A stretch of 64,000 nt of DNA from contig CAVQGX010000018.1 in NCBI GenBank assembly GCA_963712115.1, positions 64,001 to 128,000 of the forward strand, written 5' to 3'. This document shows positions 7,800 through 9,360 of the stretch, piece by piece. Made by a program: the position numbers and the translations under genes. How positions within the stretch are numbered: the first letter of the stretch is position 1; each line of letters begins with the position of its first letter. Under the pieces are notes generated by a model. The model was not told where the DNA came from, ran no database searches, and saw nothing but the letters and a program-made list of their open reading frames with translations. The DNA is from an uncultured delta proteobacterium (GTDB lineage Bacteria > Desulfobacterota > Syntrophobacteria > BM002).

Positions 7800-8057
7800 A
7801 TTTTTGTAGCATTTTACCAACCACTTTGCAAAACATGGAAAAAGGTTGCGTATAGGGCGCAAAACAGGTACAATTTTGTCCACCTTTTTAGGGATTGATC
7901 CTTGTGATTTCAATTACTTACGTGATCTGGGTTAAAACCGATGTTTCTTTACTAACCTCAGGTAGCAAAGACGGGAGGGTAAACCAAGGGCAGTCACAAA
8001 CAGAACGTCAATATTCAAGCACAATGTGGCGCAAGGCTTAAGCAACTGTGTTGCTTG

Positions 8058-9008
8058 TCAAGCTGTTTCCTCAAAATGAGGTTGCCATGGCGCATGGTTT
8101 TTCATCATAGCGTTGAGTATGGTTAACAATTTTCGCATGCAAGCAGTCAGCGCAACTTTATGCGCTTTGCCCGCGGCACAGAGACGTTGGTAGAAGGCAC
8201 TAATGACCGGATTAAATCTAATAGCAGTAAGTGTTCCCATGTATAGCACTGCTCTGACGTGCCCACGGCCACCCCATATGGACCTTCTGCCACGAAATTT
8301 GCCACTGTCTCTGTTGAAAGGAGCTACTCCTACTAATGCTGCGATTTGCTTTCGGTTGAGTTTGCCCAGCTCAGGCAATCCAGCCAACAGACTGACTGAG
8401 AGCACTGGTCCTACTCCTGGCACAGTGCGAAGTAATTGCTCTTTTGCCCGCCAGACAGGACTGGCTTTTATGGTCTTTCTCAGATCCTTATTGATATCGT
8501 TTAGACGTTGCTCAAGCCAGGCAATATGGGCCTTGATGTCACTGTCTACAGGCTCGGGAGCAGTCATAAGACGATTTTTCTCTGCAGTAAGCATCTCTAC
8601 CAGCTGCTTTCTGCGGGCAACCAGGGCACTGAGCTGCTGTGCTTGCTGGTCCTTGAGAGGTCTTACTTCCGGTTTTGTCGCCTCGCCAAAGTGGGCCAAA
8701 ACCTGGGCATCGATCTTATCGGTCTTAGCCAACTTGCCCAGTGATTTGGCAAAATCCCTCACTTGGCGAGGATTGACCACTACAACGGGAAGACGAGCTG
8801 CGGCCAAAAGAGCAACAACGCCTGTCTCAAGGCCTCCTGTAGCTTCCAGGACAATCAGGCGAGGACGTAACCGCTTTGCGTCTTTAATCAGCGTGCGGAT
8901 CCCTTCCTCGTCATTGTCCACAGACCATGTATCGTTTTTTGGGACTACGGCAACATCCAAAAGGTTTTTGGAAACGTCAATACCTATGACTCGCTCTGAT
9001 TGGCTCAT
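8058..9008 (-). CDS. IS110 family DEDD recombinase/transposase
   Basis: GIDVSK, LEATG, KTDKIDA (DEDD) and C-terminal VPGVG...APFNRDSG...ACMRKLL. True start is probably the ATG at 9008 (MSQSER). Confidence 0.97.
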
Positions 9009-9175
9009 GATAGCTTCTCCCCCCGGCCTTGCGGATACGGGCTCAAAAGGCCCAGACAACTGTTCGGGTTATGTGGAGATGGACGTGACGACCCATGCTT
9101 AAGCTCGGACTTTATGTCCCAGGCACTATAGTCGATCTGTCACGTCCTTAGGCTAATTAAACATATCATGAGCCA
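9001..9175 (-). ncRNA. IS110 bridge RNA (target- and donor-binding loops)
   Basis: Stem GGACGTGAC/GTCACGTCC enclosing guides AGTGCCT and GCTTAAG that match the insertion flanks; second loop with ACAGTTG and GCAAG matching the element ends. Confidence 0.8.
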
Positions 9176-9360
9176 TGGCATTAACAACATACAAGGCGCA
9201 GGGTGCACGGCGAATTCATAGAATCCATTAGCCAGTAGCCAGTAGTCAGGAGCTGAAAGGGACTCGTTTCAGTTCTTATCTTGTGAATACTGGATGCTGG
9301 CTCTTTCACCTTATGCCTCGAGCCTTGCACCTTGTGCCCTAGCATGGGGGAGGAGAAAGC

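Follow-up and report, generated by a model that had tools for sequence, protein, structure and literature searches.

Recombination guided by a bridge RNA has been described for insertion sequences (ISs) of the IS110 family since 2024. The family counts thousands of predicted orthologues (PMC11208160), and the IS621 element of Escherichia coli, which serves as the reference for bridge recombinases, is treated in PMC11208160 and PMC11208158. In the guide-reading rules adopted from the accounts in these two papers, the left target guide (LTG) and the left donor guide (LDG) have the same sense as the top strand, the right target guide (RTG) and the right donor guide (RDG) are complementary to it, and all four cover the core; the split geometry of the RDG, the handshake rule and the roles of the catalytic residues of IS621 are those given in PMC11208158. 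The IS1111 group, whose RNA is named seekRNA or bridge RNA, is defined in PMC11208160 by a guide RNA in a long right end and by sub-terminal inverted repeats of 7-17 bp. The locus compared here with these systems lies in a window of 64,000 nucleotides (the whole stretch of DNA analysed; positions 64,001 to 128,000 of contig CAVQGX010000018.1, from an uncultured delta proteobacterium), in which an IS110-group element occupies 8043-9193 on the minus strand (1151 bp, neither core copy counted). Judged by its sequence, this element is very probably an intact insertion sequence whose movement relies on recombination guided by a bridge RNA, as in IS621. Its gene, its ends and the heptamer array that it interrupts are located as follows, the junctions being named after the left target (LT), right target (RT), left donor (LD) and right donor (RD) that meet there:

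8058..9008, minus strand: recombinase gene, 316 amino acids, ATG at 9008-9006 and TGA at 8060-8058; the one open reading frame in the element
9194..9195, minus strand: CT core at the left (LT-RD) junction, AG on the plus strand
8041..8042, minus strand: CT core at the right (LD-RT) junction, AG on the plus strand
8056..8061, minus strand: right-end -35 box TTGACA, which overlaps the stop codon
9186..9191, minus strand: left-end -10 box TATGTT, reaching its 17-nt spacing from the -35 box only in the joined state
8028..8042, plus-strand letters: left part of the interrupted heptamer array, GGCGCAA GGCTTAA G
9194..9215, plus-strand letters: right part of the interrupted heptamer array, AG GCGCAG GGTGCAC GGCGAAT

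The recombinase matches the Pfam families PF01548 (DEDD_Tnp_IS110; E 1.5e-27) and PF02371 (Transposase_20; E 3.9e-18), and it scores 242.7 bits (cut-off 140) against the NCBIfam model NF033542, named "IS110 family RNA-guided transposase". Its residues 6-309 align with the IS621 transposase (8wt6; E 8.3e-35), and residues 2-309 align with that of ISCro4 (9t56; E 2.8e-38), the best match among solved structures. The catalytic motifs of IS621 are retained, these being GID (D), EAT (E), TDxxD (as TDKIDA; both D residues) and SG (as DSG; the S). The protein has the organisation of the IS110 group, with an N-terminal RuvC-like domain of the DEDD type and, at the C-terminus, a Tnp domain carrying the catalytic serine.

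On the sense strand, the element starts with TGTATGTT (9193) and finishes with ACAGTTG (8043), with a CT on either side. Relatives mostly start with CT-TGTAT or CT-CGTAT, and their right end is a 7-mer followed by CT. Two of the 17 other genomes of the genus (G005 and G015) show the left flank continuing straight into the right flank. At the orthologous place, the sister genome G005 has an unbroken array (...GGCGCAA GGCTTAA GGCGCAA GGTGCAA GGCGAAT...), and G015 is empty at the same place with three units fewer. In addition, a metagenome contig of 2367 bases (run X3, DNA) differs by seven letters in each aligned flank and lacks 1153 bases of the interval 8039 to 9193 (placed to within three letters), the length of the element plus one core copy. 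The ends of the element are thus fixed by three independent lines, namely the conserved termini of the relatives, the empty sister site and the 1153-base skip of the contig. As is typical of the IS110 group, the CT core is found at both junctions, long terminal inverted repeats are absent, and the element is lost precisely, together with one core copy, at the empty sites.

Joining the two ends by script gave the donor ACAGTTG-CT-TGTAT and placed TTGACA and TATGTT on either side of a 17-nt spacer; the 14-bp donor is enclosed by the inverted repeat CAAC/GTTG. Both boxes (-35 and -10) of a junction-assembled promoter, another trait of the IS110 group, are thereby present in sequence; in the inserted state, no sigma-70-like site was predicted between 7900 and 9400 (shuffled sequences average 1.3). 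The target consists of CCTGCGC (9202-9196), CT and TAAGCC (8040-8035), and the restored site reads GGCGCAA GGCTTAA GGCGCAG GGTGCAC GGCGAAT. A preliminary description of this DNA, drawn up by a model from the letters alone, had already proposed this donor with its junction promoter, this empty target and the restoration of a heptamer array; all of its sequence statements were recovered at the positions that it gave, and the array is unbroken in G005.

The guide RNA is predicted within the left end of the element, where the following parts were assigned:

9081..9147, minus strand: target-binding loop from the consensus fold, with an outer stem, a 5' loop holding the LTG, a distal hairpin and a 3' loop holding the RTG
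9021..9068, minus strand: donor-binding loop, from the leader alignment and the consensus fold
9121..9129, minus strand: LTG, AUAGUGCCU, whose GUGC and CU are complementary to the bottom strand of GCGC-CT apart from one U-G wobble
9098..9104, minus strand: RTG, GCUUAAG, exact to CT-TAAGC
9056..9063, minus strand: LDG, ACAGUUGU, of which ACAGUUG (9063-9057) pairs with ACAGTTG
9028..9036, minus strand: RDG, AU, CC skipped, then GCAAG, which pairs with CT-TGTAT including one G-T pair

This leader is non-coding and 184 nt long. The leaders of 59 distinct relatives were aligned with it, and the consensus fold was derived from 41 of them, after nine divergent or poorly aligned leaders and nine near-duplicates had been left out. 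The fold comprises two modules, each formed by an outer stem, an internal loop and a distal hairpin. Compensatory changes, in which both sides changed and the pair was kept, were observed in 18 of the 24 consensus pairs, with 3-22 double changes per pair in the outer stem of the target loop. Two of the 24 pairs link the donor guides to each other; as one and the same duplex is read by these two guides, such pairs are expected to be artefacts. The target-loop stem was also obtained when the window leader was folded as a single sequence. These compensatory changes support the two-loop leader RNA of the preliminary description, and a long non-coding left end with a structured RNA of two internal loops is characteristic of the IS110 group. 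No bridge-RNA family in Rfam matched the leader. The only Rfam match near it was a weak one to sX15, a small RNA of Xanthomonas, on the opposite strand (9012-9159, plus), with 31.2 bits against a gathering score of 55 (E 0.0093). According to the account in PMC3300014, plasmids carry sX15 and the complementary asX7, and 10 homologues lie in one Stenotrophomonas chromosome; the match near the leader suggests that sX15 and asX7 go back to the leader of an element of the IS110 family.

The target guides proposed earlier were confirmed at their positions, the GUGCCU part of the LTG (9126-9121) with its single wobble and the RTG without a mismatch. The bases CA (9097-9096) that follow the RTG suit the handshake position, where they face donor positions 6-7 (TG). 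The donor guides for ACAGTTG and GCAAG also stand, with two refinements: the eighth base of the LDG (U9056) forms a wobble with the first core base, and the RDG is divided into AU (9036-9035), two skipped bases and GCAAG (9032-9028). The bases GC (9027-9026) after the RDG fit the handshake position against target positions 6-7 (GC), and the relative L079 has A as its seventh donor base and U, in place of the usual C, directly after the RTG. The first loop is therefore complementary to the target flanks including the core, and the second to the element's own joined ends, as in other members of the IS110 group. An alternative register of the LTG, with the extra loop bases AUA bulged, gave a better distal match (ACU/GUGCCU vs CCT/GCGCCT) and was rejected, as the improvement is not significant when the bulge can be chosen freely.

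Empty sites were rebuilt for 47 distinct relatives, and the agreement between guides and flanks was assessed by a permutation test that used one insertion per distinct leader and allowed a slide of up to two bases, in the controls likewise. On the LT side, 43 leaders matched their own flanks at a mean of 5.26 of the 7 non-core positions, compared with 3.88 for permuted flanks; on the RT side, 47 leaders matched at a mean of 4.57 of 6 positions, compared with 2.86. The observed value was reached in 0 of 1000 permutations on either side, figures that overstate independence since the relatives are kin. The signal shows up in specific paired changes of guide and end as well. Left ends starting with CGTAT go with the RDG GCGAG, and the right ends ACAGTCG, ACAGCCG, ACACCTG, ACGGTTG and ATAGTCA are accompanied by the same changes in the LDG of those relatives. 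The matches were concentrated near the core, with LT positions 4, 5, 6 and 7 agreeing in 39, 38, 40 and 40 of the 43 relatives and RT positions 1-5 in 42, 42, 40, 39 and 41 of the 47; LT positions 1, 2 and 3 agreed in only 20, 17 and 28 relatives, and RT position 6 in only 7. The informative positions of the clade are hence LT 4-7, the core and RT 1-5. At these positions, the window element has 10 of 11 bases paired exactly and one G-U wobble: LT 4-7 contribute three exact pairs and the U-G pair, both core bases pair, and RT 1-5 are all exact.

A search of the reference-genome collection yielded no sister copy, the best relatives being 62% identical over the whole protein (66% in a partial match). 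A scan of metagenome contigs gave 427 relatives, and two of the best 80, which were examined, are 95% identical in protein to the window recombinase. These sister elements (L110 and L111) measure 1150-1151 bp and have the same donor as the window copy (WIN). Over the two RNA loops, WIN and L110 differ by four bases, three of which are guide bases. The guides and targets of the three copies, and their restored sites in the unit frame (a slash marks the insertion point before the core), are:

WIN: LTG GUGC, LT 4-7 GCGC; RTG GCUUAAG, RT TAAGC
L110: LTG GAGC, LT 4-7 GAGC; RTG GCGUAAG, RT TACGC
L111: LTG GCGC, LT 4-7 GCGC; RTG GCGUAAG, RT TACGC
WIN restored site: AATTCGC CGTGCAC CCTGCGC / CTTAAGC CTTGCGC
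L110 restored site: CTTGCAC CTTGCGC CCTGAGC / CTTACGC CTTGTGC CTTGCGC
L111 restored site: CTTATAC CTTGCGC / CTTACGC CTTGTGC CTCAAAC

All three copies are hosted by CYTNNGC arrays, in which the core CT opens a unit, and targeting of heptamers is supported because all three insertions lie in such arrays. Neither sister was thus found at an unrelated site, and the changed guides of both match their changed targets. Further copies, some of them 5-10% diverged, appear at loose contig ends of runs X1, X3 and X15, with one side seen in each. Their left-target flanks contain similar heptamers, such as ...GCGCAGGG CCCAAGG CGCAAGG CGAAG (plus strand), and one right-target flank is less clearly periodic. 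A contig of the RNA library (run X15) spans 9017-9200 of a variant copy and continues into the flank; contigs cannot show starts, strands or transcription.

Among more distant relatives the landing sites are diverse. Clear heptamer arrays (CTNACNC) were recognised in only two of the 47 with rebuilt sites (L083 and L090), both from genome G029 of the host's class and about 49% identical in protein to the window recombinase; their lag-7 identities are 0.63 and 0.55, compared with at most 0.40 at other lags. Five planctomycete relatives (L059, L060, L066, L067 and L072) insert in tandem 9-mers (CTTGGCGTC), and in these as in the G029 heptamers the CT core opens a unit. Many other relatives insert beside hairpin-forming repeats resembling repetitive extragenic palindromic (REP) elements. 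This last observation would be consistent with a landing site set mainly by DNA structure or by protein recognition of the array, with RNA complementarity being secondary, and a second, structural layer of target recognition is reported for the REP-targeting ISPpu10 in the account of 10.64898/2026.03.19.712850. However, sister copies from arrays of one kind show joint changes of guide and target bases, covariation in the family as a whole involves specific bases, and the array is a degenerate direct repeat without an obvious hairpin. A choice of site by structure or protein is accordingly regarded as highly improbable, and recognition by the bridge RNA is preferred.

Several observations weigh against an active element guided in this manner. 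The single-sequence fold of the leader is no more stable than shuffled sequences (z -0.61), and the alignment fold was for that reason relied on. Within the target loop, the 5' loop exceeds that of the 40 aligned relatives by 3 nt, a feature common to the sister copies too. LT positions 1 and 3 are unpaired with the guide, and position 2 forms a wobble only; over all seven LT positions the window element matches its own site at three exactly, no better than it matches the sites of other elements. The clade positions that carry signal were determined after this null result, and the window site was then scored on those, so the fit of the window guide rests on core-proximal positions, which are also the informative ones of the family. 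DNA searches found no further copy in the element's own genome, where it is single despite about seven unoccupied sites that fit the guides. The four other IS110-family matches in that genome belong to a different, IS1111-like element at non-heptamer sites. Lastly, the circle-junction joint was not found among the contigs of four runs, although contigs cannot show rare forms.

The weak distal pairing could indicate a bridge-RNA element that landed in the heptamer array through a near-cognate or half-match accident, its true preferred target (one fully matching AUAGUGC-CU) being elsewhere or in another host. At most 10 of the 12 positions outside the core are matched by any site in the genome, and 8 or more by 1711 CT sites, the real site matching at 8. 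Searches of the 17 other genomes of the genus gave no close copy, which would fit a recent arrival, and a half-match insertion of IS621 is reported in the account of 10.64898/2026.08.31.748434. Against an accident, all three close copies with both flanks known lie in one family of arrays, each matched at LT 4-7 and RT 1-5, and the further contig ends show like flanks. In addition, LT 1-3 are weakly matched throughout the clade (17-28 of 43 relatives), and the mismatches of the window element are therefore typical rather than exceptional. An accidental landing is considered quite unlikely. The single copy and the missing circle junction could also be those of a dead relic, which keeps the anatomy of a bridge-RNA element and has lost its mobility. 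However, the reading frame is intact and of full length with its catalytic motifs, the ends, the predicted junction promoter and the guides are intact, the insertion is polymorphic (the contig lacking the element is about 97% identical in the flanks), and sister copies occupy other loci. A relic is on these grounds unlikely, and an intact element with RNA-guided insertion is the reading retained.

The extent of array targeting was considered across the whole host genome (G000). With Tandem Repeats Finder at a low threshold, 2115 rows had period 7, whereas period 6 had 87 rows and period 8 had 426, and after merging, 1935 period-7 arrays made up 1.28% of 4.9 Mb. The unit sequence varies among the arrays, with many different units. 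Strict GCCYTNN arrays of at least three units number 79, compared with 14 in the reversed genome, and 12 of the 79 contain the unit GCCTTAA. The arrays near 17130 and 29260, to which the insertion-site array had been likened, are indeed GCCYTNN arrays and belong to its family. The 11-mer G[TC]GCCTTAAGC occurs at seven other genome sites; five of them (C6 twice, C16, C22 and C31) are in heptamer arrays, which take up about 1.3% of the genome. Since only 12 of the 79 strict arrays carry GCCTTAA and about seven other sites fit the guide, array targeting holds for one sub-family and a few sites and not for the arrays at large. The earlier proposal that the element uses the abundant intergenic arrays as landing sites is thus upheld in that three copies lie in CYTNNGC arrays, and it has to be narrowed to a single sub-family with about seven other fitting sites.

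Further features of the arrays were recorded. Examples in the window lie at 9225-9253, 15616-15727, 16886-17005, 18462-18678, 29163-29236 and 46064-46287. The orthologous arrays (window 8028-8042 and 9194-9253, L108 in G005:C374 and L109 in G015:C121) differ by whole units; G015 is without three GGCNNNN units that are present in G005 and the window, and the adjoining array of the AGCCAGT type varies in unit number too. Arrays of GCCYTNN/CCTTGNN units stand directly upstream of ribosome-binding sites and start codons at 9305-9340 (plus strand; GTG start at 9361), 17128-17155 and 29253-29273, in the orientation opposite to that of the insertion-site array, and they may be part of 5' untranslated regions. 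The intergenic stretches 9193-9341 and 7824-7864 have dozens of partial DNA matches (70-95% identity, 30-150 bases) across all 17 genomes of the genus, and they resemble a dispersed intergenic repeat in which heptamer arrays are combined with a hairpin (GGAGCTGAAAGGGACTCGTTTCAGTTCT). The host arrays recall the short tandemly repeated repetitive (STRR) sequences of cyanobacteria and the TAACTGA repeats of Beggiatoaceae (PMC4679880). Among the titles listed in literature searches, none linked IS110 elements with heptamer or STRR arrays, which is no proof of absence.

The anatomy of the element, its ends, the covariation of guides and flanks in the family and the matched guide and target changes of the sisters can be read directly from the sequences compared; from these we infer junction transcription, circle formation and recombination. 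In the proposed mechanism, excision would join the right and left ends around one CT, and the junction would form the TTGACA-17-TATGTT promoter, which could drive a bridge RNA of about 170 nt from the left end. The donor loop of this RNA would hold the element's own junction, ACAGTTG-CT-TGTAT, the target loop would hold a site of the form G(Y)GC-CT-TAAGC, and the DEDD/Ser recombinase would exchange strands at the CT. The target of this lineage would be the boundary between two CYTNNGC units, with the CT that opens a unit serving as the core.

A broader possibility is that this IS lineage and the hypervariable heptamer arrays of its hosts evolve together, through wobble reading, retuning of guides, and a contribution of the recombinase to the gain and loss of units. 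An array would represent a row of phased targets, because every CYTNNGC unit opens with a CT core. A U facing the Y-degenerate unit positions would let one RNA read several variants by wobble, and sister copies would retune single guide bases to track variants of the unit. The IS621 recombinase can also excise and invert between matching sites, and a recombinase of this kind might add to the gain and loss of units between sister species. Such coevolution is, on the whole, doubtful.

A second IS110-family element is present in the same genome. It measures about 1.3 kb and has four copies, mutually 90-98% identical, at approximately C41:2071-3391, C42:17055-18374, C36:18376-19685 and C48:12583-13883. 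Its sub-terminal inverted repeats (ATGAAAAAGCT / AGCTTTTTCAT) indicate that it probably belongs to the IS1111 group, and its flanks are not heptamer arrays. In the genus relatives searched, nothing beside the conserved right-hand gene corresponds to the minus-strand gene at 7066-7713 or to the sequence reaching to about 7930. Flank homology with G005 and G015 begins near 7934, which may therefore be the border of a strain-specific segment.

In its sequence, the element has all the defining features of the IS621-type IS110 group, which agrees with the earlier designation as a bridge recombinase; it is new only as an unnamed member of a described family, and its clade may already be among the predicted orthologues of PMC11208160. 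No new mechanism is involved, since both mechanism and family are in print as described in PMC11208160 and PMC11208158 and NF033542 already names RNA-guided transposases; the locus is a tidy natural case of guide reprogramming. Its value lies in three sister elements whose RNA loops differ almost only at guide bases, each set fitting its own site, and in landing sites that are tandem heptamer arrays and not the usually reported palindromic REP elements. The guide layout of the clade, with four informative left bases, the core and five right bases, could interest those who collect orthologues for genome engineering, and the insertion marks the heptamer arrays of the host (about 1,900, 1.3% of the genome, with unit numbers variable between sister species) as worth study.

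Compared with IS621 as described in PMC11208160 and PMC11208158, the window element shares the protein architecture and the catalytic motifs, a left-end bridge RNA whose target loop precedes its donor loop, and guides of which the LTG and LDG read the bottom strand and the RTG and RDG the top strand. Also common to both are the CT core, an RDG split by two skipped bases and containing a G-T pair, -35 and -10 boxes united at the junction, and a short sub-terminal inverted repeat flanking the donor (here CAAC/GTTG); CT-TGTAT, the right donor half, is identical to that in the pairing given for IS621. However, the window protein is distant, its match being clear by E-value only, and the RTG reads five bases past the core, compared with two in the wild-type IS621 of those accounts. 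In addition, the informative LTG comprises four bases and the core, in a loop 3 nt longer than that of the aligned relatives, and the target is the boundary of tandem heptamer units and not a REP element. These differences are of degree. ISCro4, whose transposase is the nearest solved structure, was compared by protein alone. ISPpu10 and ISPpu9 of Pseudomonas putida, as far as they are described, resemble the window element as IS110-family members that use a dispersed host repeat as landing site; however, they land in palindromic REPs, whereas the present element occupies a direct tandem array of degenerate 7-mers and has sister copies with guides retuned to unit variants. The recombinase superfamily and the principle of RNA guidance, as set out in PMC11208160, are shared with the IS1111 group; the RNA lies here in the 184-nt left end, only 14 nt follow the stop codon and the inverted repeat measures 4-5 bp, and the element is therefore assigned to the IS110 group and not to the IS1111 group.

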